DNA of 60,892 nt, filler included, from Hausera hauseri (lineage: Eukaryota), in assembly GCA_046269625.1 (NCBI GenBank). It is 11 parts of 11 records of this genome, joined end to end, with 100 filler letters (N's around TTAATTAATTAA, not from the genome) between each part and the next. Parts side by side here need not be neighbours in the genome. Positions count along the whole stretch, not along the records: positions 45,659 to 50,576 come from JBJURY010391812.1; 10 more parts are not named here. The stretch is one strand, 5' to 3'. The notes under the pieces were generated by a model. That model did not search any database and was not told the origin of the DNA. It saw only the letters and a list, made by a program, of their open reading frames with translations. Position numbers and translations under genes: made by a program. Position 1 is the first letter of the stretch; each line of letters starts with the position of its first letter. This document shows positions 36,175 to 60,892 of the stretch, piece after piece.

Positions 36175-36354
36175 TACACAAAAACCCGAAAATTTCTATA
36201 TAAAAACCCGAAATATTATANNNNNNNNNNNNNNNNNNNNNNNNNNNNNNNNNNNNNNNNNNNNTTAATTAATTAANNNNNNNNNNNNNNNNNNNNNNNN
36301 NNNNNNNNNNNNNNNNNNNNGATTAAAAATTATGATGAATATAATAAGCAGGCA

Positions 36355-37092
36355 ATGCAAGTTAAAAATCAAAACATTTTAACAGACGAAGAGATACAGC
36401 ATTTTCAGAAACCTGTAACAAATGAATTAGACTTAATTAAGAAATCGATGGAATCAAAGATTCCTGTGCAAAGCACAATTGATAGACAAACTGAGATAAT
36501 AGATCAACCAAATGATGGAACTGAAGATAAATATCCACCAGCAATTGAATTTCCAGCAAATTATGAACCGTATTTTTTACCAGATGAAAGAATATCTGTA
36601 AACGTTTCTAGAACCAATAAATTAAAACCATATTTTTCAAAACAAAAGTATCAAAGAATTAGAATAAATAATAAAGATTTTGCGTTGGGAAAAGATTTGA
36701 CAGACAATTTAGTATATATGTGCAATGAAAATTTTGATAGAATGCTTTTTACTGATGATTTTGATAAATTGGTAAGAGGATATAGTTCAGATAATAAAGA
36801 TGAAATTGAAAGATATATTAATTTTATTAAAACTATAAGCGGTGATAATATTAACAATCTTAGTTATATTAAAAATTTAAATCAAATAATTAAACAAGGA
36901 TATCATGTTAAAGAAGGTAAGTCTATTAGTGGACCCATACAAAATTTTATTAATTTGTATAAATTTATTGCTGCAAAAAAGGCTGGACATAATAATGTTG
37001 ATAAAGATATTAAGAAAATTATAAACAAATTAAAAAGTTTGAAGGTTATTAGTAATGAAAAATATAATAAAATAATTAAGAAATATCTGTAA
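36355..37092 (+). CDS. Polinton/adintovirus-associated hypothetical protein (probably 5'-truncated)
   Basis: The C-terminal AAKKAGHNNV..IKKIINKL..LKVI resembles the AG[NH]..I..L tail common in Polinton accessory proteins. It lies next to the penton. Confidence 0.6.
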   Translation: MQVKNQNILTDEEIQHFQKPVTNELDLIKKSMESKIPVQSTIDRQTEIIDQPNDGTEDKYPPAIEFPANYEPYFLPDERISVNVSRTNKLKPYFSKQKYQRIRINNKDFALGKDLTDNLVYMCNENFDRMLFTDDFDKLVRGYSSDNKDEIERYINFIKTISGDNINNLSYIKNLNQIIKQGYHVKEGKSISGPIQNFINLYKFIAAKKAGHNNVDKDIKKIINKLKSLKVISNEKYNKIIKKYL

Positions 37093-37097
37093 CAAAA

Positions 37098-37823
37098 ATG
37101 GAGGAGGAATTGAAAAAATTAGTTAATATTTCATCAACCAAATATTCAACAATGCTTTATTGTGAATCTAATAAATCTGATTTTTACACTGATTTTACTA
37201 TACCTATTGAACTTGATAATAATTTAAATTATGAACTAGGTCTTCTATGGTTTTCAACATATAATACGATTTTTAATATAACCAATGAAAATAATAAATT
37301 TGAATTGTTTCGGGAGGGAACAAAGTTAGAAATCTCAACAGTAAGTCCTGGTGCATATGATATTACCCCTCTAAGTGAAAAATTAAAAGATTTTATGGAA
37401 ATAACAGATGATAAACCAACTTCAAAATGTTCAATGAATATTAAAAAAGGATATTCTTTAAAATTTGATGATAAATCATTTTTTCATACAATGTTGGGAT
37501 ATTCGATACGAGAATACAAAGAAGGAAAACATTTATCTGACTCAATCATTCAAATTACAAGTATAAACAGTATTAATATTTCTGTTGATTGTATTAATGG
37601 AGCATATAAAAATGGAAAATCTTCAAATATTGTTTATTCATTTCCATCCTTCACTGTTCCTTCTGGTTTTAAAATGTTTGAAAGACAAGTATTTCCAATT
37701 TATTACCCAGTAAACAGAAAACATATAAGTAGATTGAATATAAAGATTTTAGATGATCAAGAAAAGATTGTAGATTTCAATGGTGAAAAAATTATTGTGT
37801 GTTTGCATTTGAAGCAGGTCTAA
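37098..37823 (+). CDS. Polinton minor capsid protein (penton, single jelly-roll)
   Basis: SDF...PIELD..YELGL..FSTYNTIFNI..NNKF..PGAY; IYYPV....I..LNIKILD....VDFNGE.I...LHLK. Confidence 0.88.
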   Translation: MEEELKKLVNISSTKYSTMLYCESNKSDFYTDFTIPIELDNNLNYELGLLWFSTYNTIFNITNENNKFELFREGTKLEISTVSPGAYDITPLSEKLKDFMEITDDKPTSKCSMNIKKGYSLKFDDKSFFHTMLGYSIREYKEGKHLSDSIIQITSINSINISVDCINGAYKNGKSSNIVYSFPSFTVPSGFKMFERQVFPIYYPVNRKHISRLNIKILDDQEKIVDFNGEKIIVCLHLKQV

Positions 37824-37848
37824 CCTACAGAATTTATTAAATATAAAA

Positions 37849-38283
37849 ATGGATGATGATTTTTCAATCCTAGATTTTCTAAAAACATTTGGAATAGGTA
37901 AAACAACAAATTTTGATTTGTATGAAATTGCTGAAAAACTTAATTTACCTATAAAAATTTTAATGAATGATGAATTGTTTAAAATCACAAACACTAAAAA
38001 ACACAATATTATTATTAATTATGAAAATTCGAATGAAAATGGAAATCATTGGTGTTGTTTTAGAAATAGAAATTTTTATTTTGATTCGTATGGTATTAAA
38101 CCGATGAAGGAAGTAGAACAGTTCCTAGTTGATAATTATGTGTATAATGATAGGCAAGTTCAACCATTTGGAACTAAAATTTGTGGTGTTTTATGTGTAT
38201 TTGTTTTGTATAGAATGGAAAATGGATGTCGTTTTCAAGACATAATTGAAGAGTTGGGTGATTCTCTTGAACCATTATTATGA
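37849..38283 (+). CDS. Adenain-like virion maturation cysteine protease
   Basis: Catalytic H-D-Q-C pattern: GNHW, YFDSYG, QVQ....ICGVLC. Confidence 0.92.
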   Translation: MDDDFSILDFLKTFGIGKTTNFDLYEIAEKLNLPIKILMNDELFKITNTKKHNIIINYENSNENGNHWCCFRNRNFYFDSYGIKPMKEVEQFLVDNYVYNDRQVQPFGTKICGVLCVFVLYRMENGCRFQDIIEELGDSLEPLL

Positions 38284-38329
38284 ATTGTTTCATCTAGAGC
38301 AAAGCTCGGACAATTTATTGTCATAAAAA

Positions 38330-39241
38330 ATGGATTATGTTCCAATTTCACACAGAGGAGAACCTATTCAATTTGGAATTAATAGAAAAGATGTAATAGA
38401 CATTACAGAAAAAAGATTTGTTAATGAATCTGGTGATTCAATTACTAATTTAGTTATTAAAGAAAATTGTAAAATAAATCAAGATTTAATTATTAAAGGT
38501 AAAGGCCTCATTTCAAATGATTTTTATGCCAACAATAACTTGTATATAAATAAAGATTTATTTATAAACGGAAATATAAATAGTGAAAGTTTAGAGAGGA
38601 AGAATAAATCTCAAGATGAAGAAATAATAAAAATTATAAATGCTGCAAATGAAATAGGGAATCAGATTAAAAAACTTAAAAATGTTATATTTGCTGCTGA
38701 AGCGAGAGAAAAAGATTTAACGAAAATTCAAAAGGAAATTACAAAAATTAGTGAAGATTATGAAACACTAATCAATCGATTTAACTTAAATATGGGAAAA
38801 GTTAGAGAAAGAATTTTAGATTGTGAAACACAAATAAAAACCTTACAAAATACACAAAAAAGAGTAAATGAAACCAATGTTTTCCTAAGTTCAATTTCTA
38901 ATGATGTCGATGATATTAAAAAATTATTATATGGAGACAAAAATAAACCACTATATTTTAAAAAATATGATTCAAGAAAATGTTTGATGACAAATTTGTG
39001 TGAGAAGTTTGAACTTATTGATTATAAATTAAAAGACTTGGGAACAGAAATAGATAAAAATAATGTCAACATTCAAAAATTGTTTGATACCTATAATTTA
39101 ATAAAAACTAACATTCCAGAAATAAGACAGGTTAGAGAATCAATTTTATTAATTTTTACATTTACTGGAAAGAAATATGGTGTTTTTGCATTTCAGTCTT
39201 TAATGTCTAATCCGAACAACATCAAAATTATAAAAAATTAA
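38330..39241 (+). CDS. Coiled-coil protein with N-terminal beta-repeat, possible fibre or structural protein
   Basis: 6-residue periodic NLVIKE/DLIIKG/NLYINK/DLFING, then long heptads. It lies in the capsid gene cluster. Confidence 0.6.
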   Translation: MDYVPISHRGEPIQFGINRKDVIDITEKRFVNESGDSITNLVIKENCKINQDLIIKGKGLISNDFYANNNLYINKDLFINGNINSESLERKNKSQDEEIIKIINAANEIGNQIKKLKNVIFAAEAREKDLTKIQKEITKISEDYETLINRFNLNMGKVRERILDCETQIKTLQNTQKRVNETNVFLSSISNDVDDIKKLLYGDKNKPLYFKKYDSRKCLMTNLCEKFELIDYKLKDLGTEIDKNNVNIQKLFDTYNLIKTNIPEIRQVRESILLIFTFTGKKYGVFAFQSLMSNPNNIKIIKN

Positions 39242-39659
39242 ACAAATAATTTTATAAAAAATGGATGATGAAAATGAGCGAAGCTCGGCCGTAGGCCACT
39301 CTATTTATCCTAAATTAGATGATGAATTTATGAATTTAGAGACGAAGTCTCGGCATCTTTTAGATGCCTTTGCAGAATCTAGTTATAAAAAGCATTAGAT
39401 AAAATAAATGGGGTCAAATTATGAAGAAATATAAAAGAATATAACGTGACATGACAACTGTTAAGCAGCATTATTGTACAGTATGAAAATAAACTAGGTG
39501 CAGTAAGAACAAATGAAGCAATGACTGGCCGATATGCAATAGCATTGAATTAGCCAACACTGTTTTTTTTATGTTTTTCCAGACTACGAAATGCGAATGT
39601 AAGACCAAACCACACTTATGTGTATGAAAAACTGGAAACTACTTGGTGAGTACTACATC

Positions 39660-40145
39660 TTCTCTTAGTTGCGTTTGCTTCTGCGCCCTAATCTTACAAC
39701 TGCTCTTGCTACTACTATTACTACTACTGCTGTTGCTTTTGCTACAACAACAACAACTACTACTACTACTACCAACCACAACCACCACTACTATTACTAC
39801 CACTGCTGCTACTGTAAATACTCTTACCACCGCACTTATTGTTACTACGAGTAGTACTTTTACTAATGCTACAATTACTATTACTTCTACTACCATCACT
39901 GCTGGTGTCGCTGTTGCTGATGATGAAGATGATACGACTGCTGTTGCTGCTTTTACTAAGGCTGCTACTAAAACTACTACTGCTACTTGTAGTGCTAGAA
40001 GTGATGATGCGACTGCTGATTTTAATGTTGCTGCTACAGCCGCTACCACTACTATAGGGTCCCGTGCTACTATTGCTACTATTAGCACTACTACTACACC
40101 AGGTACTATTTATTATTATATTACTATTGATTGTACCATTAATTA
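39660..40145. repeat. Degenerate (ACT/GCT/CAA)n low-complexity tract
   Basis: Trinucleotide-derived sequence; the overlapping ORFs are homopolymeric (poly-T/L/S/V). Confidence 0.85.
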
Positions 40146-43100
40146 TACCACGTGTGGGGCGATGGAGGTGTTGTGTGGTCGGCAACCCATAGTCGGCCCT
40201 GATTTACAGTGCCAGGGCTGACGAATCATAGTCAGCCTAGATCCTCAGCCCACGTCCAAGCCGTGTCTCCNNNNNNNNNNNNNNNNNNNNNNNNNNNNNN
40301 NNNNNNNNNNNNNNTTAATTAATTAANNNNNNNNNNNNNNNNNNNNNNNNNNNNNNNNNNNNNNNNNNNNATTAACAAATTCAAGAAACATGAAACAGAT
40401 TCTGTGGATTATTTTCATTTGAACGACTTATTCGAATAAATCTGATTTATAAATATTCATCATGTCGTCTGTAGGATAACCGTGATGACAAAATAGCATC
40501 TTTGTACCATTTTCTTTTTTACACAATTCACAAATATAAATCGTGATATTAATGGGGAAATAAGTCAAAAAATATGCAATATGTAATAATTTCCTATGAC
40601 ACGTTCAGGAAAAATATATATACATATATATTAGTTTTTGTAAACGAAAGAGAAAATAATCAGAAAATGGGTAAGATTTATGTTATATCGCAATGTAAGG
40701 ACAGCAATAGAGCAGCAAAAATAAATAATAAGCAAATTTGTTATTTATTTTTAATTTGTTCAAATATTAAATAAAAAATTCGTCACCTGGCAATGTATAT
40801 ACAGTCGATTCCTGTGAAACTTCCGATAATATAATAAAAAAGTAGAAATTGTCAATTTAAAAAATCGACTGTCACTCAATTTTGTTGACACAGGGGTTGA
40901 TTCTTGATATCCAACCTTTAATATGTGCCGACATATAAAAGTTATTTCGTGAGTTCAGTTACACAATTCCATCGAGTCATTCATTATTTTATTCTTCCCG
41001 CTAATATCTCATGAGTGCATCATCTCATAAATGTAGGGTGCCTCGTTTCATTCTTCAACGATTAGTTCCTTAAGCGATTAATTCCTTAGTTCTTTAGACG
41101 ACTAAATCTACAACAAGATGATAATCATAACTTTGTTAATTTCCTATTGAGTCCATTAATAATTTTCAAATACTTCCTCGTAACCAGTGTGTTTCGTAAT
41201 CTATATACTTAAGTATGGATTCTAATTCCCATCATGGTAAATTTTCAATATCCTATTATTACTCAATTTTAATAAAATCATTACCAGTACTTATCACATT
41301 TTACTCGTTTAAATAATTAACGTCACTAAAACTATAAAATTGAATTATTTACTAATAAAATTCAGTATTTAGTAGGTTGAATGTAGGATGTCGTTCGATT
41401 ATGTTACGTTATTCCTTTGTTTTAATGTTTGTATTAAACACTAGCAGTCTACTTTTATACTCTGTAGATATCCTAAAATAACAAGTGTCAGTTGAAGGAC
41501 ATCCATCCTTCCCTGTATAATATTGTTATCCTCTTTAAGATACTCGCGTGGTTTATCCTTAACACTTTCCATATATCGGTAAATAATTTTAGTTCCGTCG
41601 CGATCATTCGTCTCATACTTATCTGTATGACAGCAGGAATACCTGTACAAAGTTAATCGAACTATATTTAAACATTTCTATTGTAATTATAATAACCATA
41701 AATTTCTGAATCAACTTAGGGGTAATGGACTATAGTAATGGACGTCTAGAAAATCAGAACAATACTGCACTAACAATATCAACCATAGCCCCGTTAATCA
41801 TTATATGGTAATAGGGTTTCATCTTTATATCTAACAATATAAGTTTTTTCTATCAACTCCCAGGCAAATCAATACTCCATGATATCATACATCACATACC
41901 GAAATTTCCTTTAACCGGGTAGTCACCCAATGTCCTATTCGCAATCATCTTTCCTCCTTTGAACAACATAAATTAAATCTTCAACCCCAAGTTTATAAAT
42001 ATCCTTCGATATCTGAATTTTACTTCTCCCCACCCTGTCTTTAAATTTGCTTCTCGTACATTTAATATCATATTATTCAACCTTCTCTGCTCCAGCTATA
42101 CATATGGTTGTTTCGTCATTTCGAACATCATCAAAGTCATTTCCTGATGCCACCATCACCTTTTATTAGTCGCTATAAGCCAGTAAATCATGCTTATGCA
42201 ATTGATAGTTCTCCAAAAATTTTGTTTTCAAATTTTTATTATAAGAAACAAATGATAATAGAAAACTCAACTAGATTAAACAACTAAGAGTATTAGTCAA
42301 TTGACAACACAATTATAAAATTTTTTACCATTCATATATTCCATTTTAATTCTGTCATCGCCAGTGAGTAATTGTACCATGTTATTTTGGAGGTTATTGT
42401 TAGACATTTCTCCGGATATTGCAGCATTCCCAGATTCTGATATTTCAAGTACTGGAGCGATCTCGACGTTTGGCATGCCATGATTCATTGATGTATTTGA
42501 ATTCATTCTATTAATCGGATTATTAAGGAATATACTGATTCTATTCTTTTCATAATATTACTAAGTAGTATATATATATACTTACCAGGAAGTGCGTCTG
42601 GTAAGATCTCAAAAGAAATTTCGATTACTAAGCACTGAGTAAATGTTTTTCAAGAGTTTTTGTGTTGTTGCTGCCTAATTCTGCTCTGTTTATATAGTCC
42701 CGTTTGTAATACGATCTGGAATATTCTAAATTGATTTTCATAATTTATCTGTATGTTGTCAAACGGGTTCTCATGGGTTACTAAGTGAATTTTGTAATTG
42801 TTTTCTGTTTCGCCTATTGTCAAGCGAATTTTCATAATTTGTTTTTTGGTTCTCTATATTCATTTTTGGTAATCCGATTTGTATCCATGCATTTATTTGA
42901 TTTGTTTCTAAGTTCGTTTTGTGAGTAATTCGATTTTGTAAATTCAAATATTCATAATTCAATTTTTGTAATTTCAATCGTTCGACTATCTATATTGGCT
43001 TAACTGGTGACGACGTTCGTTTTAATATTTGTTTTAAAATTTTCAATTCCTCGGTATCAATTATCAATGACCTAGCCATTCTTTTGGTTAACAATGTACT

Positions 43101-43321: not shown

Positions 43322-43720
43322 TCATGGATTCAATTGATAATCTACCTCAACATTTCTCTCCCTTATGAAAAGGATTCGGTCCTCCGGATCACACTGGGTA
43401 CTGACATCGATAAAACTGAGGTTTCTGGGTCTGATTGTCAACGTCGCATCATTTATTGGGTTCGTCCAATGGCATAATCGCTGGGTACGGTTGTCGTAGT
43501 TATATGAAAAGTGATAGTAGATTGATGATTGACAACAATATGGGCATGAAATGCCATTTTGAAAGGTCATTTGAAGAGCGTCTTTCGGGTTGATTAATTT
43601 GAGGGACTGAGAACGAAGTTTATTGAAACAAGTTGCACACAGTTTGTGGTTACATTGAAATTGGACAACAGTTATTCTTTCGGTGAGACATATAGTACAT
43701 TCATAGGTGGGAAGTTGATC
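43322..43720 (-). pseudogene. RING-HC finger coding segment
   Basis: In-frame extension of ORF 43570-43322: YECTICLTERITVVQFQCNHKLCATCFNKL...GISCPYC. Confidence 0.8.
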
Positions 43721-44212
43721 GTACTAGAGAGATTGTAATGTTGCCCATAAGTCAGGAGGGGCTAGGTCGGAAATAAGGTCGATTGGACATTTATTGAAGA
43801 TAGGAAACCAATCTTCCTGAAATGATATTGGTAATGGTGGACTGTAAGAAATGGTTGGTGTAGGTATTATTGAGGGTGCAGGTACTGGCAATTCAGGTAA
43901 TGATCTAATAATTTGCTCGGGATGATAACGTGAGTGTGGTATTGAAGACGGCTGTCGAAGAAGTGACAGGACATTTATATGGGGTAAAGGTACTTGAAAA
44001 GTAATTGGTGGTGGTCTAGGTATCGTAGAAGGGTCGAATCAATGAATTGGAAATTCAATTCTGACTGATGATTGTTGTTCCAGTCGAAAATATCTTGTGG
44101 GGAGTATTTGAGGAATTGGCGTATTAGTGATAGTAAGAAGAGCTCTTTTAGGATGGTGGAAATATGAGTAGATAAATTTGGGACAGAAATAACATATACT
44201 ACAGATTAGATA

Positions 44213-45070
44213 TCAATGGTGAGATTCCATTTGGTAGCAATGGAAACAATATTCAGCATTACAACAACTAAACTGGTAAGCTGTTTTATTGGGCTTATTA
44301 CATAAACAGCATGTGTGTAATTGGAAGTATGGGATAGAGAAAGGTGTTGACACATCCCATGTATAGTAATAAGTAACGTGGTCAGATAGTTCAATAACTT
44401 CAAAGGTTTGGGCATCTAGTAATGATTGATCAGCGTCGGATGGATATTCATTATGTCGGATACAATATTCGATTTCGTATGTACAAATAGGGCAATGAGG
44501 TATAGGATGGGCTTGTGATCGTATTCGCCCTATACAAAATAGACAAACCATATGTAGACATGGTGTTAATCTGTACACTTCGCTGAGAATTACTCTGCAG
44601 AACATGCATTCTGGAAGATCTAAAAATAAGTAGAATTAACTAAGATTTAAGTCAATGATATTATGATTTATGTTGTCAGCGTCTTCAGTATACAATGAAT
44701 TAGACAAAAGGTTATACAATTGTCTAAGTAGATGGGCTTGTACCAGTGGTGAAGTATATGTAGGAATAACGGTGGTATTTAGCAATTGTTCACTTAAGCG
44801 GGGTATAAGTGCTGGGTGTGTGAAGAATTTTGCAGCAATAGGGTGATAGTTAAGATTGAAAAAACCATTGGTGTAGGTAGCAGGTAATTTCAATAAGTAT
44901 AAAAATAGATCTAGTTGTGTTGTTATGATGAATTTATGCTTCAGCATATCTTGTATCAGAGGTAAAATGTCTTCATTATCAACTTTATTTAGGTTAAGTT
45001 CATCCGTTATGCCTGTAAAGGGTGTTCTCCAATCTAAGACTTTATGTCGGGGATACATTTGTTGCTGCAA
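44213..45070 (-). pseudogene. RING-finger protein segment (one complete RING-HC plus a second RING-like start)
   Basis: ECMFCRVILSEVYRLTPCLHMVCLFC...CPIC, then CCLC..FSCCNAEYCFHC. In frame with the 144-aa ORF 45070-44636 across one stop. Confidence 0.75.
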
Positions 45071-45411
45071 TAAAATTTCGCCTTTAGAGTCTAATATAGC
45101 GATATCAATAATGGTTTGGTTGATGATTGTTAAATTAGGTTGGGTAGTAACGTAATTATAGGCTACAAAGGTGAATAGGGGTTCTAAATCTGACAGAGAT
45201 AATCCTTCTGGTGTGGAGGAGTATTCGTTTACTGGTTCTAGTAGCTTAGGTATATGAATTTATTGATCGTAGTCCTCATTACGGGTGTATATGAGTTTTG
45301 GTTAGTTTATTTCCACAGCATATATACAATATTTGAAGAAGTAACAGTAAAAGATAACAATTCGATAGGGGGAATTGTAATAATCACACTAAAATTGTTG
45401 AGTGGTTTATG

Positions 45412-45558: not shown

Positions 45559-46019
45559 NNNNNNNNNNNNNNNNNNNNNNNNNNNNNNNNNNNNNNNNNN
45601 NNTTAATTAATTAANNNNNNNNNNNNNNNNNNNNNNNNNNNNNNNNNNNNNNNNNNNNCCATCAAATCGTCTACTACAAACTGTGGGAATGATCGTAGCA
45701 TGTTTCGCTTATGTCTCGTAGGTGCCTTGAGCAAAACAATAAAGTACGGCTGACAACTTTTGAATCGCATTTATGAATGTGTTGATGCTGATGAGAAGTA
45801 CTTGTTTACAACCGTTGCCACTGACGGTAATTTGCGTCTAGTTGTTGTTGTTCGAAGCACAGAATTAATTAATCGCTTGACTGTAGCGGTACGTTTTGAT
45901 ACACGTTTCTTTCAGGGCACCCGCTGGGTAAGTTTACGTTTAACAATTGTTTTTCAGAAATTCTTCATTTTAGCACTATCATGTGGTCGATTTTTGAATT
46001 TGTTTATAGACACATACGC

Positions 46020-46624
46020 CTTTCTAATTAAAAATGTCTGCTCGTACACGCATGTCATCGGGACACGGTTGTGTAAAGTCAGTGAACAAGTATCACTGTG
46101 CCTCTGTCGTAGCATCATGATATGCATCTACCAAGTAGGCTCGGTTGTAAAAAATACTTGTCGTGCAACATAATCAATGATAGTATGATCACGGGGATTT
46201 TTGAACAACACCATATAATGTACGTTTCGATTTCTTGTTCGATGCTGTCCACCCTGATGGAATATGTTTTGCGTAATGAAAATAACCGTCACACCACGGT
46301 GCCGTACAATCTTCGTGAACAGGTTGTTGAATTCGCAGCTTCCTGAAATAAATCGTCGATAACAATAACGTCACCATTGCGTAATCTCTCTGACCAGTTC
46401 TCATCAAACCCATCAATTACCGTTATCGATTTTAGTTTACAAAATGCCCCATGTGTCAAACGGGACTCACCATCATCACCAACACCCTGATGCCAGTAAA
46501 TGCCATTGTACTGCGGTGAACGGAATATGTCACAATACTTCTGCAGCATTTTGAAAACAAAGTGCGTTTTGCTACTTCCACTGGGGCCCACAATCTGGAA
46601 AATTGCACCATTCTGCAGCTTCAT
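46020..46624 (-). pseudogene. Polinton A32/FtsK-like DNA packaging ATPase (frameshifted)
   Basis: Walker A GPSGSSKT and Walker B VIVIDD; continues in another frame as LFTK..RH..VTVIFITQNIF..YMVLFKNPRD..VARQ. Confidence 0.9.
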
Positions 46625-46717
46625 CTAAATAATACTAATACAACCTTTTCTCACATGATTTGTTTATAATTATGTTACACACATATAAATAGCTATAGTA
46701 TAAATGCTGTTGCCATA

Positions 46718-47500
46718 ATGTTAGCTAATATCAACTATCACGGACATGTTACGGAGTGTGGCTTTAACACAGTACCTTTTAATCAATGGAAGCCGATGCA
46801 GTATGTCCTCAAGTGTCCACAGGATTTTACATGCATTATATTAAAATCGGGAAAGTGTCGTATTATGGGTTGTCTCAAACCAATCACAGCTGAGAGTAAC
46901 AATAAACTACTGACATTCGGAATTGCCATTGACCAAATTCAATCAATAACGGTAACGACCCAGTTAGACTGTCCAGCAATCAATCTGTACAAATTAGCGA
47001 TGGCCACTGAAAGTATGTATGAATACAAACTGTTTCCTGCACTGAGACTGACATTGTTTCGCTCACTTTGTGTCAATGTATTCAGCAGTGGAAAAATCGT
47101 TGTACTCGGTATACGGACAGTGGACTATGAACCGATTATTAATCAAATTAAAAAGCACATAAATGTTTTAGTGAATCAAAATAATGTACTCTGCACAACA
47201 ACAACAAACTGTAAATACCATTCCAATGGTCATTCACACATTACTGCCATGGAAGACGACGACAAAACGATTCTACTCAATGGCGGTGGTTGTGAGAATG
47301 ATGAAAGTTCAGATTGGTTGTGGTTTTTTGGCTACAAAAAGGACAATTCTAATGTCAAACTGCTGGAAACGAAAACAGAACCTGTACAACAATTAGAAAA
47401 AATTAGTCGATTGTCTGGAAACGAAAAAGAAACTTGCCCAGAAATGATCAGCAGAAAACTTGACGTTAGAAAGGCAAAATGCAATGATCGGAATACATAA
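46718..47500 (+). CDS. TATA-binding protein (TBP)-like protein; the C-terminal ~100 aa may be a fused separate ORF
   Basis: Two TBP repeats: TCIILKSGKCRIMG and INLYKLA..MYEYKLFPAL..VNVFSSGKIVVLG (compare TBP IFSSGKMVCTG and YEPELFPGL..IFVSGKVVLTG). Confidence 0.82.
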   Translation: MLANINYHGHVTECGFNTVPFNQWKPMQYVLKCPQDFTCIILKSGKCRIMGCLKPITAESNNKLLTFGIAIDQIQSITVTTQLDCPAINLYKLAMATESMYEYKLFPALRLTLFRSLCVNVFSSGKIVVLGIRTVDYEPIINQIKKHINVLVNQNNVLCTTTTNCKYHSNGHSHITAMEDDDKTILLNGGGCENDESSDWLWFFGYKKDNSNVKLLETKTEPVQQLEKISRLSGNEKETCPEMISRKLDVRKAKCNDRNT

Positions 47501-47897
47501 ACAAAAATCAAAACCGTCGCGCCAAACAGAGACATTTTTATCAAAACAAATTTTTCGCAAGTATGAAATGTATTTTCTGAAAATGCCGGTACTGATTTCA
47601 TTGAATGATCAAGAGTGTCTATGCACACCCAAGTACAGCGATCGTGAAAAACGGCTTTCGGGTGAAAATTTGGATAAACTTTCTGATGCTCTGCATCAAT
47701 TAAACATGGATTTAAAGTTGAACAAAACGACCGTGCAACAGCAGTCTGTCGTTTTACCAGCAGTAAAAACTAAATTGTTCGATTTTATTGGTCGCGAAAT
47801 TTCTAATGTACCCGATGATGTTTTAAAATGTCTACTAAATATTGAATTGCAAGATAGAAGGAAAAGGCCGGTATCAAAAGCCCTATTTGGCGTGTAG
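47460..47897 (+). CDS. Hypothetical Polinton protein
   Basis: Open frame co-oriented between the TBP-like and dUTPase genes. No motif recognised. Confidence 0.4.
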   Translation: MTLERQNAMIGIHKQKSKPSRQTETFLSKQIFRKYEMYFLKMPVLISLNDQECLCTPKYSDREKRLSGENLDKLSDALHQLNMDLKLNKTTVQQQSVVLPAVKTKLFDFIGREISNVPDDVLKCLLNIELQDRRKRPVSKALFGV

Positions 47898-48023
47898 CTG
47901 AGGCACATTTTAATTATCGATGAATAATGTTGTTTTGTTTTACCGTTCTTCTTCTTTCATTAACTCAATTAACGACTATAAATATATGTGTAATTTTAAA
48001 AAATAAGCATAGGAATAATAATA

Positions 48024-48475
48024 ATGAATGATGTGAAGATTATGTTAACAGACGTAAGTGCCTTTGTACCGAGATGCGTTACAGCAAACAGTGCAAGCTA
48101 CGATGTGTTTTCCAATGTCAATACGACAATTCCGGACAGCACAATCAAAAGCATAACAACTGAGATTCGATTGGCAATTCCACCAGGTTACTATGGCCAA
48201 CTTTTATCGAAAAGCGGACTGGCAAAGCTCGGACTGACGGTTGTGGGCGGTGTCATTGATTTAGACTTTTGTGGTGAAATTAAGGTGTTGCTGGAAAACC
48301 AATGCTTTCTCGAAAGGCAGTGCAATCGCATAAATCGCTTTTCTTCGCTGTGAAGAGGCGGAATTCAATGTAATGCCACTGGAACAATGAGATTGTTTTG
48401 TGTCAATGAATCGATACGAAATGAATGAAGAGAATTTGGCTTTGGGAATATGGACAAAACTACCTATGTTTAATG
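48024..48475 (+). pseudogene. dut: dUTPase (frameshifted near the C-terminus)
   Basis: SASYDV (motif 1), GQLLSKSGLA (motif 2), GGVIDLDFCGEIKV (motif 3); motif 5-like EFGFG in a shifted frame at about 48440. Confidence 0.9.
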
Positions 48476-48550
48476 ATTGTGACAATAATAATAATAGTTT
48501 GTTGTTTTGTTTGTGTTATAAACAAAAAATAAATTTTTACATGTTATTTA

Positions 48551-49030
48551 ATGGTGACAAGATTTATAGAAATTGAAGCTTTTCAAGATGATAATGCCCG
48601 GTACATAATAAAGGAATTATGCGTTATGGGCGTCGTTAACATTTTCAGACCGCTTGTGTACGTATTCAAGCCCGGTGTTATGTGGAATGACCTGACGGAG
48701 AAAGCGAAATTTACAAACGGATTTCTTTTCGACATCGCCACTGACTTCATTAGTATGAAGACGATCAATTTTCTGTGTGTTGTGTATTATGGGAGAGACT
48801 TGTGATCATCTTGTCATTGGAAATACAGTATTTTATATTAAAGATCAAATTGACGGACTAAAGTTTACAGAACTCCATTCACACTATCCCGATTTGCGAA
48901 TGACGACGCCATTCAACATCGAACAGTTCGCTGGCAATGGTACCTGACAATATTAGATGTCCGTATCGTGATTATGAACTGCATTGTGCTTACCAAAAAT
49001 TTCTACGGCTTTGTATTGACTATATTTCAT
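48551..49030 (+). pseudogene. DEDD-exonuclease-like Polinton accessory protein (decayed)
   Basis: FIEIEAF....YIIKELC....VFKP...WNDL......TNGFL pattern. Confidence 0.55.
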
Positions 49031-49333
49031 GCAAATAAATAAATGTATTTCTCCGCTTCTTTTCTCCTTCCGTAAATAAGGTCCGCCGTATTGATCAGTT
49101 GAATAGTTCAAAACTATAAATACAGATAGGTTATAATAATAATAATGGACTATAATGTAAATTGTACGCATTTATTACGAATAAAATTCAGTAACATGGA
49201 GGTAATTTGTATTCTTGCGATGAAACAATACTCACAAAGTAAATATCTATTGCTTACGTTGAAAACAAATTGGTATGAACAAATTTGATATAAATAGAGA
49301 TGCAATTTAAGTTCACATTTGTCTTTTTAAACA

Positions 49334-49765
49334 ATGTTTTTGGAAAACAATTCAGCAGATGACAGTTTCTCAAAAAAGATACAATACAGCCAATATTTGC
49401 TGGGAAATTCCCGATTGTATAATGGATACAACTTACATTATCTGCCCAAAGCTATTCAATTGCCATTGACGCAAACTGTCAAAACAAAACTGGTAAAATA
49501 GGACTATTGTGAAAAAGATCAGCGACAATGATTTGGATACAATGGAAGACACAGTTAGAAAAGTAGACAGTGATTTAGTGTTAACTAACGATATCCGAGA
49601 CACATCGTCGATTTTTCTCAAACGAAATGTGGCAGAAAATGTCAGTTCACATGGCGGAGAAACAGCATCAGCAAAAGCAGTTTTGCCACCGGAAGGAGCT
49701 CAAGGCCATCTAACATTTAAGTTGAAAGGATACAAGGATCTGCACGGTGATAAATCGCCAATGTT
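49334..49765 (+). pseudogene. Conserved Polinton protein, possibly an OB-fold ssDNA-binding protein; paralog of 60292-60627
   Basis: DTMED..RKVDSDLVL.N.IRDTSSIFLK..LPPEGA.G..T.KLKG.K is shared with the contig 11 ORF. The SSB call is inference. Confidence 0.55.
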
Positions 49766-50576
49766 CGTACGCCCAACTCTTATTTCGCCCCACCCACTTA
49801 CGCTTATCATCACTGCATGATAAAATGACTTTTGTATTTGTCACCGTATACAGCTGGTACTCAATCGATCGGATGATCGATGGAGACACAACATCCTTTG
49901 ATTGTCCTCCTTCTTCTTCATAGACACGGCGATAATCACCGTGGTTTATTTCCATCTGGGCCAACTGAACTCCTTTGTCGCGCATTTTCGGTCCACCGTC
50001 AGCTAAAACCTAAAACAGTTTTGCCGTAAAAATACCCACTCCCGATGCTGAACCTGACCTTCACTTTCATCCTTGAAGCATCCAATTTTGTTTGTGATGG
50101 CGCTGCTGTACAGTGGATGATTCTGTGGGTAATTGGACGTGTCCAGTAATCCATCTGCCATCATTTGCTGCAGTAATTGATCTCGATTGATGTTTTCCAC
50201 TTCCGAGAAAAAATATCTTTGTCACTGGAAATTATATTGATCCTGCATCCGCCGCCGCCGAAAATTTGCGTGTAACGTGCCAAGTCACGATACTGCAGCT
50301 TATACATCCGCAACTTGCTCAGATCCAATACCACTTGTCCGATGTAACTTGGCCAGTCCAAAACGACTTCTTCTCTGTTTAACTGCATTGCAACCAATCC
50401 ATCGGCAATGTGAATTGACCGCCGAAACTGCGCCTTGCTGCTATACGTAACCAGCCACTTTTCGCTATTGCATAGGCATACATTGAGCCGCTTTTTCAGA
50501 TTCTCCACTGTTTTTCCGTACAGAGAATTGTTTTTCAGCTTGTAGTAGTCCTTTTCGAACTTTGTACAAGCTGCGG
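49755..50576 (-). pseudogene. Polinton PolB C-terminal part
   Basis: KLKNNSLYGKT; PSYIGQVVLDLSKLRMY; IGCFKDE; LSCSDDKR. Colinear with 59170-59970. Confidence 0.9.
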
Positions 50577-55295: not shown

Positions 55296-56087
55296 NNNNN
55301 NNNNNNNNNNNNNNNNNNNNNNNNNNNNNNNNNNNNNNNTTAATTAATTAANNNNNNNNNNNNNNNNNNNNNNNNNNNNNNNNNNNNNNNNNNNNCTCCT
55401 TATCATGCCGAAGTATCTCTTAGGGAGAATAATATCGTGCATCATGTAAAGGTGGATCAAGATTGTAAAGGTGACTCTGGATACCGTCGAACGAGTGGTA
55501 TAAACGAATGAGTTCTTTTAAATGACACATTTCGTAATGTCATACCGTAAAGAAGCGCATGTATTTATATTGAAATATAACGCATAAATTATATTGCTTC
55601 ACGAAAACAAACATAGCAAAATTTCTAATTACATACGGTCAATCAATTTTTTCATTACAATACAAAGCGAAGTAGTAAATATAAGTCCAATGAGGAGATT
55701 AAGGCGTCATCGTTGTTGTTGTTGTTTTCATTTCATTTCATCCTCGATACGTTTTACGAAGAGAGATCTAAATATCAATTCAATATACTTTCGCCTGCTT
55801 ATTATTCTCGTTTCTGTGAGCTCACATAAAAACTGTACATTAAACACATATGCGGTCAAAATATCATCGGTCAATATCTGAATTTCAATTTCCATATACT
55901 CTTCCATTTAATTTATACAAATGAAGTGCTGAGAATGGTAAATGTTTATAGCTGAGAAAGTTAAGCCCTCAGACCACCACCACCATAACAACAACAACAA
56001 CCACAACCACCACAGAAGGAGCGGTATAAGGTGCGGCGATATAATAGAATTTTAATTTAAATTATAAGCGCGTTTATATACATTTGT

Positions 56088-56582
56088 ATGACATTTAATA
56101 TTTACTTTAATTTGTTTCTCATTCAGAAATGCAATCAATATCCCATGCATTGCGTCTCCCGCATACTTGAGGAGACAGGACAGTGCCATCAACAGATGGC
56201 AAAATATTACAACGTTGGAATGGACACATATCTGTGTCTGACTTGTAATAATATTTCAGACCAATGTCCGTACCCAGATTTTTATAATATGCACAAGCAT
56301 CATCTCGGACCGTTTACACGGTCGAAGAAGATGATGGTAGTTCATTGCTCCATGTACCCACGGTACTGTACAAGTAAAATGCACGACGTTGATGGTTGCC
56401 AAAGTGCAACGGAGCAATACTATAGCACCACAACGGTGCACGGTAAACGGGCCTATATTTGTCCCGGTTGTTCAATAGTTGATGATAAAATCAACTATGA
56501 ACAATTTTACAATGAGCACCAGGACCACGTGAATCAGTTTCAGCGGCATCAGCAGCATCCCTGCAACAACGACAGCCAGTAG
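56088..56582 (+). CDS. Tandem atypical zinc-finger module, probably the N-terminus of the PolB polyprotein
   Basis: Two repeats: YLCLTC..YPDFYNMHKHH and YICPGC..YEQFYNEHQDH. A Q-rich linker and PolB fragments follow. Confidence 0.65.
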   Translation: MTFNIYFNLFLIQKCNQYPMHCVSRILEETGQCHQQMAKYYNVGMDTYLCLTCNNISDQCPYPDFYNMHKHHLGPFTRSKKMMVVHCSMYPRYCTSKMHDVDGCQSATEQYYSTTTVHGKRAYICPGCSIVDDKINYEQFYNEHQDHVNQFQRHQQHPCNNDSQ

Positions 56583-56779
56583 AAAACGTAAGTCATCAAC
56601 AAGTCTGGACAAATACATCAGAACCAGTACCGAGTTGCAAGAAGAATAAAAGCAACAGCAGGATCAGCAGGAGGAACAGCAACAGCAGCAGCAGCAAGAG
56701 GAATAGATACAACAGGAACTCGACATTACAGTCAACTACGACATGAACAGGTCGTACTTGGATATAAAAGCGAACATGT

Positions 56780-59700
56780 CGGTGACAACAACAACACAAT
56801 TGAGACATGTTCCGCAGAATGTGCGTAACCGGTTGGGATTAGAAATGGACAAATTCCAACACCACCACCATTGCACAGTGCAGTATTATGCACTTGCAGA
56901 ATTCGAAAACATTGAAAGCGACAGGAAACAATGGTACCCGTCACATTGAATTGTACCATACACCAAGGATTTTATAGCTGAGATTGGCGAAAAGGTCGAG
57001 GAGAAAATCACCAACTATACGAAAAAGGGTAGTGGATGGCGAATTATACGAATTGTCACCCTCGGATTTATCATAACAAAGTCGAGTGAAATGATTTACT
57101 TGTATGGGAGAACATTTATGCCGATACCTACAATTCTGAAGCAGTTTCTGGCGGTAGTGCATGTAAAAAATACTGACGACAAATACTGTTTCATTTACAG
57201 TATCCTGGCCATGTTAATCATCCAAATCAGTATCGACAGTATTTTTCTGAATTGGACTTTGATGAATGTTGGATGCCGATAAAATTTAAAACCATTCCGA
57301 CTTTTGAACGGCGTAATCGGCAATGTCAATTAATGTGTTCCGGTACAACACAGTCGTAGAAATACCGGAAGACGAAGAGATTTACAAGAACCCTCATGTG
57401 GACGTAAAATATCGAAGTCGGAATCCGAATGGACGCACAATAAATTTGATACTGTTAGAGAAAATGGATGGAGAAAAATTTCATTACGCGGTCGTGCAAA
57501 TTTGGACAGATTTTTGTACATGGAACATGATCAGTTTATCAAAAAACAAATACTATGCAAATGTGTCCTGTATGTCTGCAAGGCTTCAAATCACAAACAA
57601 CATGGCAGAAACATGTAACGTTGTGATACAAAATGCAACAGGAACAAAAATGTATGTCATGCAAGTAAAAAAGGAGCTGAGGTTCAGTGACTGGTTGAAA
57701 ACTGACAATCCGGCATACTTTGTATATGCTGATATTGAGGCAATCCTACCACCGCACAACATATTCCAATTGCCGTCGGCATGCTGCTTGTCCTAAGAAA
57801 AGCTACAGGTCAACCACAATATTATGTTTTTCATGGCTGGAACTGCGTACGCGATTTCCTGCCTCAGTTGGAAACAATGGTAAAAACGGAAGTCGCACCA
57901 TGGTACAGTAGAAATAGCAATAAACCCTTGATGTGGACAGATGAAGATGAACGTCTGACGTTTGCAGCAACCGACGAATGTTACCTGTGCTACAAAATAT
58001 TAACTTTCAATGCACAGGAACGGCTCGAACCGGATCACGATAATTTTACCGGTCGACATTTGGGAGAAATATGCAATTCGTACAATTTGGCAAGGCGCGT
58101 GAGGCCATTCCTGCTGGTGATTTTTCGTAACTTCCGGGGTTATGATTTTTACCATATTTTAAAATGGGCCATAAACGGATTTCCACACGGGAAACTATCC
58201 ATAATTCCAACAACGATGGAGAAGTACCAGTCCCTATCGGCACGCATAAACTGGTTCCAGGTACGGTTTCTTGACTTATTGCAGTTCCTTAACAAGTCTC
58301 TAGGAAAGCTCGTAAGTGCCTTGCCGGATGTGCCATAACATTGACTCAGTTCCATGTACATATTGCATGTAGCAAAGGCATATTCCCATATGACCTTGCT
58401 GTGTCGTACGAGAGGCTTTAGACAACAGATAATTGATGCCATAATGGACTGGAATCACAGAGGGCGAATACCACAGAGCGCAGGAAGGGTGGACAGAGCT
58501 CAGCGTGTACTTGTTAGTCTGTGTTTCAGACATTTCGTGCTAAGGCGTTGGTGGAAGATAGGCTGGAGCCGCTAAACTTTTACTCATACCAGGGATGAGT
58601 TTGGCATCGGCACTAATGTCGCTGGACAGGGAAATTGAGCTGTTGAAAGACTCGGAAATATACCAACTATTTGATGTTTGTATTCGTGGCGGCATGACAT
58701 TTGTCAGCAAGCATCAGGTAACCAGTGATGACGATGATACAACCTTAATGTTGTACATCGATATTAATAACCTGTATGGCTGGGCGCTTTCGCAACACTT
58801 GCAATAATATTGATTTGAATGGAGAATGGACAAACAAAAACTGGATACATTGCTGCACAGTCTGCCAGCAGCAGCAAACACGACAGAAAGCAGCTCAGTC
58901 GGCTACCTAATGGAAGTCGATCTTTTGGTACCAGATGAGTTGCATGACGCTCTGGACAAATTACCCGTCGCACCAATCAGCCAAAGTCCGCCCGACTCAA
59001 AAGTAAAGAAACTGCTCATGACGCATGAACCAAATTGGAATTACATGGTTCATTGGCGTCTACTTTAGTTTTACATGCAGCTCGGTGTACGCATCACATA
59101 GCTGCATCGCGCAATCCACTTTAATCAAACGCCGATATTCAAGGCATACATTGACGGAAATTCGCAGACACAAGCCGCAGTTTGTATAAAGTTCGAAAGG
59201 GACTACTACCAGTTGAAAAATAATTCTGTATACGGAAAAACAGTAGAGAACCTCAATAAGCGACTCAAATAACGAAAGCGACTGATTACGTACACCAGCG
59301 CAGCTCAGTTCAGGCGGTGAATGACCATTACCGATGGATTGGTTGCGGTGCTGTTAAACCGGGAAGAAGTCGTTCTGGACCGGCCAAGTTACATCGGATA
59401 AGTGGTATTTGACTGAGCAAGTTGCGAATGTATGAGCTTCATTATCATGACTTGGCACGTTACCGGCAAATGTTCGGCGGCTGTGAGATCAGTATCGTTG
59501 CCGGTGACATAGATAGCATTTTCCTTGAGCTGAAAAACGTCAATAGCGACCAACTGCTCCGGCAAATAATGTCAGATGGACTACTGGACACGTCCAAGTA
59601 CCAACCAGATCATCCGTTGTACAGCAGTGCAATTAACAACAAAATCGGCTGTTTCAAGGATGAAAGTGAAGGTCTGGTTCATTATCGGGAATGGCTATTC

Positions 59701-59990
59701 CTACGTCCAAAGTGCTACAGTCTTCTTACGGACTGTAGACCGAAAATGCGGGCATAAGGAGTCCAGCTGAGATAGACGGAAATCCACCACGCTGATTATC
59801 GCCGTATCTATGAAGAAGAAGAAGGATAATCAAAGGCTGTTGTATCTCAAACGATTATCCGATCGATTGAGCACCAGCTGTATACGGTGACAAATAAAAA
59901 AGTAGCTTTATCATGCAATGATGATAAGCTTAAGTGGATGGGTCGAAATAAGAGGTGAGCGTATGGACATTTGAGGTTGAAACAAAACAG
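56780..59990 (+). pseudogene. Polinton/Maverick protein-primed PolB, full length but heavily frameshifted
   Basis: SGWR; VKNTDDKYCFIYSIL; YADIEAIL (ExoI); DHDNFTGRHLGEICNSYNL (EndoVII-like); RNFRGYD (ExoII); KGIFPY; IRGG..LYIDINNLYG (motif A); LKNNSVYGKT (B); GDIDS (C); FKDE..LRPKCYS. Confidence 0.93.
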
Positions 59991-60291
59991 GTTCGGTGGT
60001 GTCAGATCAGATAAGATGAGATACAAACAATTTAATATTGTGACAATTATTGACAATTATCTTTTGTACATTGTTTTATTTTAATATTGATAATGTACTT
60101 TGTTCATTATCTTTTGCGTTTTGTTTTCGGTTAGTTACTTAACCTATTATTATTAAGATAAGGTAAAAGTAAAACAATAACCTTGAACAAGAAAACAAAA
60201 TATGTAACATAAATACATTTATTTATTGATGGAAGAAAAAGTAAAATTACAAAACAGAAAAATTAAGTCAGTTAAATCATAGTAAACTTCC

Positions 60292-60627
60292 TCATTTCCA
60301 TATTTGAGATTTGACACCGCTCCTTTCCTTGAATCCTTTGAGCTTCAGTGTCATGTAGCCTTTTGCTCCTTCCGGTGGTAAAACTGCTGCTGCTGTTGCT
60401 GCTGTATCTCCGCCATATGAACTGACAATTTTTGCCACATTTCCTTTGAGAAAAATCGACGATGTATCTCGGATATGGTTACTCAACACCAAATCACTGT
60501 CAACTTTTCTAATTATGTCTTCCATTGTATCTATTATACAATCGGGATTTCTGAGCAAATATTTGTTGTACCACAGCTTTTTTAAGAGACTGTCATCACC
60601 TGCTGAATTGTTTTCAACCAAAGACAT
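60292..60627 (-). pseudogene. Paralog of 49334-49765 with an internal deletion
   Basis: High peptide identity to the contig 9 ORF; convergent with PolB in both contigs. Confidence 0.6.
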
Positions 60628-60892
60628 TGTTTAAAAAAGACAAACGTAAACTAAAATTGCATCTCTATTTATATCAAAGGTTTGTTTTCATTAAGTAAAA
60701 TAGATATTTAGTTTGTGAGTATTGTCTCATATCACAATGATACAAATTACTTCCATGTTACTGAAGTCATTCATAATAAATGTGTACAATTTCCATTATA
60801 GCACATTTACATTCTGAACATTGGTGGGTTACTTTTGTGGTGGTAGGACACATTTGACAAACAACGAGATGGCCGCACATTAAGAATACCGT

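Follow-up and report, generated by a model that had tools for sequence, protein, structure and literature searches.

What does a Polinton do with a TBP of its own? The question is raised by positions 45659-50576 of the window, a 60,892-nucleotide stretch of DNA from Hausera hauseri. The window consists of 11 contigs joined by spacers, so the contigs that adjoin this one in the window are not its genomic flanks. The sequence of interest is one complete contig (4.9 kb) and represents an internal fragment of a decayed, very-many-copy Polinton. It contains both a protein-primed PolB and an A32 ATPase, each of them broken, and CpG depletion is absent from it (observed/expected 1.07). A preliminary description placed a co-oriented block of TBP-like, unknown, dUTPase, DEDD-like and SSB-like genes between the ATPase and PolB, and proposed that the TBP could redirect host Pol II to element promoters or act as a decoy. 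We confirmed this block on the + strand (TBP-like, SSB paralogue 1, dUTPase, DEDD-like, SSB paralogue 2); the A32-type ATPase and the C-terminus of PolB are both on the - strand (Table 1). An ORF is indeed present where the unknown gene was placed, but that label does not stand, as the gene is a second member of the SSB family.

Table 1. Features of the contig, with positions counted along the window.
Position	Strand	Feature	Evidence
45663..45770	-	Conserved small gene, presumably gasdermin-X-like; start, cut by contig end; follows ATPase in relatives	tblastn 9/75 loci; HMM iE 2.8e-7
46001..46008	-	YATAAACR box, 26 and 40 nt upstream of ATGs downstream of ATPase	
46000..46624	-	A32-type packaging ATPase, broken, three frames	sibling-ATPase HMM iE 1e-33, 6e-32, 4e-18; siblings match Pox_A32
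46661..46668	-	YATAAACR box, 44 nt upstream of ATPase ATG; divergent gap, no co-oriented gene end there	
46684..46706	+	Two canonical TATAAAT boxes, 34 and 19 nt upstream of TBP ATG	
46718..47175	+	Compact two-lobed TBP-like domain, ~153 aa	Pfam, AF2, Foldseek, VIA
47176..47500	+	Run-on of TBP frame beyond the family's end; likely former 5' part of next gene	family lengths
47448..47897	+	SSB paralogue 1, predicted OB fold of T7 gp2.5 type, C-terminus decayed	
48024..48353	+	dUTPase, broken, match stops at profile position 82 of 129	PF00692 E=2.4e-14
48517..48524	+	YATAAACR box, 34 nt upstream of DEDD-like ATG	
48551..49035	+	DnaQ/DEDD-fold-like gene with Cys/His tail, broken, more than one frame	tblastn 13/75 loci; alignment; Atlas structure leads
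49403..49820	+	SSB paralogue 2, broken	hhalign E=3e-5 to SSB family
49710..50576	-	Protein-primed PolB, C-terminal part, three frames, broken, cut by contig end	HMM iE 7e-49, 2e-23, 2e-14; 58-61% to L011, L027

The TBP-like ORF (46718-47500, +) matched Pfam PF00352 with E=3.6e-11. An AF2 model of the domain was two-lobed (pLDDT 91, pTM 0.83), all 44 of the 44 Foldseek PDB matches at E<=0.001 were TBPs, and VIA gave a Z of 12.7 with an rmsd of 3.0 over 153 residues (residues 1-160). These data bear out the two-lobed TBP saddle. In this contig the TBP domain has no stop and no frameshift, but a reading of this openness as retention is not supported. The neighbouring genes carry at least six frame changes in about 2.4 kb, and at that rate a Poisson estimate gives 460 nt a chance of about 3 in 10 of staying unbroken, so the open ORF is no sign of selection here. 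At 260 aa the ORF extends beyond the end of the family (median of relatives 149-153 aa). The copy also deviates at four positions that are nearly invariant in the family, and one of the two acids of its TFIIB-contact pair is altered. It is probably no longer functional.

The relatives define a compact, element-borne TBP family of about 150 aa with no extra domain. The family search returned 36 matches, and the family occupies 75 metagenome loci, 31 of which carry a core Polinton gene; among the loci of at least 5 kb this was true of 12 of 15. The Polinton setting and the occurrence of the TBP in sibling elements are upheld. By contrast, a fixed TBP-ATPase-PolB order is not conserved, since the TBP is found at three or more gene positions in relatives. 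An SSB-like gene adjoins the TBP in 22/75 loci and a dUTPase was matched in 0/75. The siblings share PolB, an rve-chromo integrase, an A32 ATPase, an adenain protease and capsid genes with Polintons/Mavericks of the Beta-adintovirus type. The integrase and protease were confirmed with Pfam in close siblings, and the capsid genes were assigned by position plus a weak Capsid_N match (E=0.007). Beta adintoviruses are marked by a divergent PolB outside pfam03175 with an N-terminal OTU; PolB of three relatives (L011, L027, and L091) gave no PF03175 match. The eight core Maverick genes, as given in the accessible text of PMC8097293, do not include TBP or SSB. In IMG/VR, alignments of the near-clade TBP, of the ATPase and of the capsid each failed to detect a relative, a scan with the second-clade TBP found only two giant-virus-like TBPs, and a search of a phage collection gave no match.

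We surveyed residues in 116 family members using yeast numbering assigned by alignment. The equivalents of F116, F190 and F207 were each retained in 115/116 members and that of F99 is lost. Thus, the expected intercalating Phe residues are present at three of the four positions. The equivalents of the TFIIB-contact acids E186 and E188 were found in 109/116 and 114/116 members. Lobe 1 helices H1 and H2 are deleted in the near clade, and in the second clade the basic helix H2 of the N-lobe is shortened and changed. This helix is the eukaryotic surface for TFIIA, TAF1, Mot1, NC2 and Brf1, and the compact TBPs do not have it in that form. PMC7221094 describes the C-lobe acids of TBP as the contact site for TFIIB and the H2 patch as the docking site for regulators. 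The equivalents of V122, T124, N159, I194, V203 and L205 are substituted family-wide, with the V203 equivalence set by register at a position where the aligner placed a gap. TBPm3, an altered-specificity mutant (PMC1636458), is defined by changes at three of these, I194, V203 and L205. With one Phe and two helices gone, the protein might bind DNA less well.

In relatives, a YATAAACR (TATAAAC-type) box occurs about 35 nt upstream of ATPase, capsid and other genes. ATAAAC was present in 63/96 upstream windows where 4.6 were expected, in a set picked after the motif had been noticed. The box was upstream of ATPase (17/18), gasdermin-X-like (12/15), PLA2 (7/8), DEDD-like (8/12), MCP (6/9) and minor capsid (6/12) genes. 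For TBP genes it was upstream of 0/55, and a canonical TATA was there in 22/55. A number of late-type genes have no box within 70 nt; it was present for 0/5 protease, 1/6 cupiennin-like and 4/11 integrase genes. Over half of the start-linked sites (57/103) lay at 30-45 nt, and the box shows a strand bias. In the contig itself, the dUTPase gene has a canonical TATAAATA at 47977. A candidate promoter, CATAAACA at 47496, was rejected because it is within the SSB coding region.

Box and TBP type were also compared between elements. One element retrieved by its ATPase rather than its TBP (L091) has a compact TBP and 10 coding-strand boxes versus 1.9 expected. A Polinton with a near-canonical TBP (L092) has no box excess and carries TATAAAAG 33-43 nt upstream of three genes. 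The box controls were few and partial, namely L092 and four Polinton fragments in which no TBP was detected; a whole-record TBP search covering one of five control Polintons gave no match, so the fragments are only putatively TBP-less. Of the elements compared, L078 has seven box matches on one strand, none of them upstream of its four core genes. The box and the compact TBP are possibly two traits inherited by the same lineages.

We think it probable that the compact Polinton TBP is an altered-specificity late-promoter factor for YATAAACR that recruits host Pol II, with binding to the box predicted from residue and promoter patterns. Early expression of the TBP gene would depend on host TBP acting at a canonical TATA box. 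The viral TBP would then bind YATAAACR via its remodelled DNA face and its kept C-lobe acids would dock host TFIIB. Because the N-lobe basic helix is absent, it may escape control by TFIIA, TAF1, Mot1 and NC2. Virion genes would be switched on by the viral TBP at YATAAACR. The idea that host Pol II is redirected to element promoters is supported and now has a concrete candidate box. A broader proposal is that widespread Polinton lineages have their own early-to-late switch, run by one 150-aa TBP that co-evolved with its box, works through host TFIIB and Pol II and does not respond to the regulators of host TBP; we are evenly divided on this. If true, it would be the smallest known viral basal-transcription system and a natural orthogonal TBP-promoter pair. 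The pair would bear on the timing of Polinton virion genes and on whether Polintons have a helper-independent lytic cycle. A cognate TBP and box would open both questions to experiments that need no more than a small protein and an 8-bp reporter, the box could mark late promoters across many integrated elements, and the compact TBP could serve studies of TATA recognition as a natural altered-specificity TBP.

It is rather unlikely that a host factor, such as a TATAAAC-tolerant host TBP or a forkhead protein, reads the box and that the viral TBP is a decoy or competitor soaking up TFIIB or blocking host promoters. TATAAAC is one base off canonical TATA, ATAAACA fits the forkhead consensus, and the TFIIB-contact acids are retained, all as this explanation would have it. 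However, ATAAACG and CATAAAC variants of the box are common, the tight box-ATG spacing fits an element in the TATA position, and in L092 the box type shifts with the TBP type. The decoy idea in particular is weakened because the protein has lost the very surface to which host regulators bind, a basic patch needed to attract Mot1, NC2, TAF1 and TFIIA.

We consider it improbable that the viral TBP is not a transcription factor but a replication or packaging helper, binding DNA at termini or an origin, and that the box does something else, for example mark 3' ends. The frequent SSB-like neighbour of the TBP is consistent with such a helper, as are the 18/99 box sites that overlap a TAA stop codon. 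KSHV ORF24 binds the origin as well (PMC6541308), and a Phe-deficient Giardia TBP is reported to bind ssDNA (PMC12209930). By contrast, the box occurs at only 1/20 convergent gene ends and 51 of the 99 sites near a stop codon are entirely in front of it, which disfavours a 3'-end signal; the box located between the divergent ATPase and TBP genes of this contig and the conserved TFIIB acids also argue against the helper.

That the gene is a captured host TBP retrocopy, a passenger or decaying family-wide, fits the decay that this copy shares with its neighbours and is very improbable, being refuted at the family level by conservation: the family is under purifying selection (median dN/dS 0.245 over 86 non-independent pairs), is spread over two element clades and several places in the gene order, is about 20-25% identical to cellular TBP and, in a quick tree without archaeal or TRF2 rows, forms its own long-branched group apart from canonical TBPs. 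Two of the 28 rows labelled canonical fell among the element TBPs in this tree, and the giant-virus-like TBPs sampled (L076 and L077) grouped with canonical TBPs.

As a comparison, beta- and gammaherpesviruses encode a vTBP (KSHV ORF24, EBV BcRF1, HCMV UL87) that, like the predicted Polinton system, combines a virus-encoded TBP fold with a modified TATA (the TATT late box) before structural genes and host Pol II (PMC6541308, in part). As described there, vTBP is large, binds Pol II itself and acts in a six-protein viral complex, whereas the Polinton TBP is about 150 aa with host-type TFIIB acids, no partner complex was seen and its pairing with the box is correlative. It would therefore resemble the herpesvirus late system by function only and not be a member of it. 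With cellular TBP/TRF and archaeal TBP (PF00352) it shares the two-lobed saddle over its whole length, three Phe, the first Asn and the TFIIB acids; it differs in that the first Phe is lost, the near clade lacks the lobe-1 helices, the family as a whole carries other residues at the TBPm3 positions and the second Asn, and identity is low. Nucleocytovirus and mirusvirus TBPs are likewise without the N-lobe regulatory signature (PMC7221094, in part; BFVD matches), but their TFIIB site has diverged and a viral TFIIB is present, whereas the Polinton TBP keeps the acids. MELD viruses with an adintovirus-like PolB have a 'TBP' label in the Fig. 5 legend of Starrett et al. (2021; PMC8502044), which does not settle whether it is the same family; the accessible text around the label has no TBP analysis and no promoter. 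This legend label, in a Polinton-related element, was the only published mention found in the sources covered; subscription papers, Repbase notes, published figures and the supplements of bioRxiv papers may also bear on novelty. TBP or TATA was not found in the accessible main text of PMC11071308, PMC11131425, PMC8097293, 10.1101/2023.08.22.554363, 10.64898/2026.06.19.733378 or 10.64898/2026.10.13.758929.

The remaining genes of the block gave additional information. The DEDD-like gene has a D-x-E start motif and reached Atlas TM values of 0.65-0.71 to exonuclease clusters, below the service's naming bar. Its family had no Pfam match and no PDB sequence match, and showed no likeness to an exonuclease-like ORF at 44636-45259. 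The SSB family model matched Enc34 SSB, DUF2815 and gp2.5 with Z of 8.4, 8.3 and 8.0 (rmsd 2.6-2.9, 101-105 residues), and by this model the family has an OB fold of the T7 gp2.5/Enc34 type. A frame-keeping GT-AG intron of 43-46 nt is present in 9/10 sibling SSB loci, which points to nuclear Pol II transcription.

The TBP of these Polintons and the YATAAACR box upstream of their genes are real, conserved and apparently little described in print. In the parts of the Polinton literature reached by searches and term look-ups, neither a TBP of these elements nor the box is analysed. The label 'TBP' appears in the legend to Fig. 5 in both PMC8502044 and the preprint of that paper, one supplement to it contains neither TBP nor TATA, and PMC10675990 mentions TBPs only in mirusvirus-like elements.

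The Polinton piece with a TBP-like gene is exactly one contig of the window, whose 11 contigs are joined by N-TTAATTAATTAA-N spacers. Its + strand encodes TBP-like, SSB-like, dUTPase, DEDD-like and second SSB-like genes; the ATPase and the PolB C-terminus are encoded on the – strand. The co-oriented block reported between ATPase and PolB in the preliminary description is all present. The SSB-like call made there also holds; the ORF labelled unknown is a second member of the same family, which adjoins TBP and has a T7 gp2.5-type SSB fold (model pLDDT 92; Z 8.0–8.4). Nine of 10 sibling loci have a 43–46 nt AT-rich GT-AG intron that joins an upstream ORF to the SSB in frame, and this frame-keeping intron points to nuclear Pol II transcription. 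It is of spliceosomal type and was noted at L001–L005, L011, L016, L032 and L059. The DEDD-like call is a lead. The family has a conserved Glu and a Cys-His-Cys tail, and Atlas gave Maelstrom (piRNA pathway) as a lead at 0.86, under its bar. A role in counter-silencing is possible for this candidate gene.

Coordinates of features (window positions unless a locus is named)
Feature	Position	Strand	Remark
Polinton contig with TBP-like gene	45659–50576		
YATAAACR box, same contig	44 nt before ATPase		in divergent gap
YATAAACR box, same contig	34 nt before DEDD-like gene		
YATAAACR box, same contig	upstream of gene following ATPase		
Canonical boxes, same contig	upstream of TBP and of dUTPase		
DEDD-like gene	48551–49035		
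DEDD-like gene, sibling locus	L033:5870–6352		
Sibling element	55396–60892	PolB +, SSB-like –	PolB broken; same SSB-like gene; ~80% nucleotide identity to 49144–50576
YATAAACR, sibling element	55499, 55950, 56078, 58170		
Second Polinton-like fragment	36321–40270		23–25% GC; three YATAAACR sites on +; minor-capsid-like and protease-like ORFs judged by eye, without Pfam match
Two RING-finger ORFs and exonuclease-like ORF	43322–45259	–	consecutive; possibly retroelement cargo
Gypsy-like and BEL/Pao-like ORFs	15320–36220		
Open pol frame, 1227 aa	30106–33789	–	among the preceding ORFs
TBP gene of L092	L092:11568–12122	–	Polinton within bacterial MAG assembly

The TBP-like identity and two-repeat saddle were borne out. 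A Pfam match (E=3.6e-11) covers the second lobe, and an AlphaFold2 model from 34 sequences has pLDDT 91.4 and pTM 0.83. Foldseek against the PDB gave 44 matches at E≤0.001, every one of them a TBP. With VIA, residues 1–160 align with archaeal and yeast TBP (Z 12–12.7, rmsd 2.6–3.0), and the best non-TBP match has Z 6.6. The protein has both lobes.

It had been claimed that the TBP ORF stays open while most neighbours are frameshifted. The domain is indeed unbroken, and the ATPase and PolB lie in three frames each, the DEDD-like gene and second SSB in at least two each, and the dUTPase match ends at profile position 82 of 129. A signal of retention does not follow, because the ORF is overlong (260 aa vs family medians of 149 in 36 proteins and 153 in 74 ORFs), differs from its relatives at four positions that are otherwise near-invariant, including one intercalating and one TFIIB-contact site, and by our own arithmetic had a 3-in-10 chance of 460 unbroken nt given one break per ~390 nt. 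Judged by its sequence, this copy is a fossil decaying as its neighbours do, and its relatives supply the evidence. Two public runs gave 31,814 and 1,572 contigs matching the stretch at ≥85% likeness, their depth giving no copy number. These numerous matches, mostly <99% alike with transitions dominant, fit a very-many-copy, diverged repeat family.

Of 43 candidate proteins, 36 are relatives at E≤0.001, a profile search gave 57 representatives at E≤1e-30, and a relative is encoded in 75 of the 180 metagenome stretches considered; a one-off host retrocopy absent from siblings is not what we see. A core Polinton gene occurs in 31/75 loci (12/15 of those ≥5 kb) and a core or linked gene in 54/75, with rve-chromo integrase, Pox_A32 ATPase, adenovirus-type protease and PolB confirmed by Pfam. 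The TBP gene's position differs among these loci, and no fixed TBP-ATPase-PolB order is kept. SSB-like genes are found in 22/75, DEDD-like in 18/75 and dUTPase in 0/75. There are two clades, one compact and including the window protein, the other of 165–171 aa in PLA2-bearing elements. In a quick tree of 77 rows, none of them archaeal or TRF2, the window protein falls within a clade of 25 rows (SH-aLRT 96), and a long branch of its own (support 99) unites 26 TBPs of canonical and giant-virus-like type.

We aligned 116 members to a plant-type TBP, with yeast numbering by offset. Equivalents of N69, F116, F190 and F207 are retained and F99 is gone, so the expected intercalating Phe set is kept in three of its residues. 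The acidic pair E186/E188 persists in 109/116 and 114/116, lobe 1 of the near-clade proteins has neither helix H1 nor H2, and V122, T124, N159, I194, V203 and L205 are swapped for family-wide residues. The available text of PMC7221094 assigns TFIIB contact to the acidic pair and binding of TFIIA, TAF1, Brf, Mot1 and NC2 to the H2 basic patch; that of PMC1636458 lists I194F, V203T and L205V as specificity-altering. Because the acids are kept, H1/H2 lost and specificity positions replaced, the family looks like a TBP whose output is of host type, whose regulatory input is gone and whose DNA face is altered. By contrast, the TFIIB site has diverged in the viral TBPs covered in the accessible part of PMC7221094.

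YATAAACR was found upstream of sibling-element genes. Within 70 nt of the ATG, with near-duplicates removed, it precedes ATPase (17/18), gasdermin-X-like (12/15), PLA2 (7/8), LRR (5/5), DEDD-like (8/12), MCP (6/9), minor capsid (6/12), integrase (4/11), SSB (3/20) and cupiennin-like (1/6) genes, 'gasdermin-X-like' and 'cupiennin-like' being provisional labels. No box lay within this distance of protease (0/5) or TBP (0/55); canonical TATAWAWR is upstream of TBP in 22/55. The top 6-mer, ATAAAC, occurs in 63/96 upstream windows vs 4.6 in shuffles, in a set picked post hoc with the motif already seen. Start-linked sites fall 30–45 nt upstream of the ATG in 57 of 103 cases, only 1/20 convergent gene ends has a box, and TAA overlap is seen in 18/99 stop-near sites. 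Eight long TBP loci carry 6–14 coding-strand boxes vs 0.8–2.3 expected, and 0–2 on the other strand.

The controls are few and agree with a TBP-box pairing. An ATPase scan of prokaryote-labelled assemblies gave four loci (L091–L094; L093 and L094 partial), all Polinton contigs inside bacterial MAG assemblies, probably by binning contamination. In L091 a compact TBP occurs together with 10 boxes. The TBP of L092 is near-canonical, with all four Phe retained (Pfam 1e-36); YATAAACR counts there are 2 and 3 vs 2.8 expected, and canonical TATAAAAG lies 33–43 nt upstream of three genes. The L092 TBP may stem from an independent capture or represent the family at an early stage. Four of 13 IMG/VR integrase loci are pieces of Polintons that carry PLA2 and ATPase, and the parts of these records searched hold no TBP and no box before a core gene; in one of the four, L078, a single strand bears 7 box matches, of which three fall within a tandem repeat.

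We think it probable that the viral TBP is an altered-specificity late-promoter factor. Its gene would be transcribed early via host TBP, and the product would then occupy YATAAACR and bring host TFIIB-Pol II to virion genes. It seems unlikely that the box is read by a host factor, with the viral TBP serving as a decoy, and a replication or packaging helper is more doubtful still. A passenger is very improbable; median TBP dN/dS is 0.245 (86 non-independent pairs), with 0.13 for ATPase (7 pairs) and 0.29 for SSB (16 pairs). The late-promoter reading has a working likeness in the herpesvirus vTBP-TATT system, as described in the available part of PMC6541308, of which the Polinton system is not a member; it would be a variant of viral-TBP-plus-late-box systems.

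Retroelement-like ORFs are present in other contigs of the window, which suggests a eukaryote assembly as the source, probably that of an animal. Cargo varies in TBP-bearing elements (L027, L030, L003, L065, L074), with ubiquitin-conjugating enzyme, LRR protein, dual-specificity phosphatase, KilA-N and RING.
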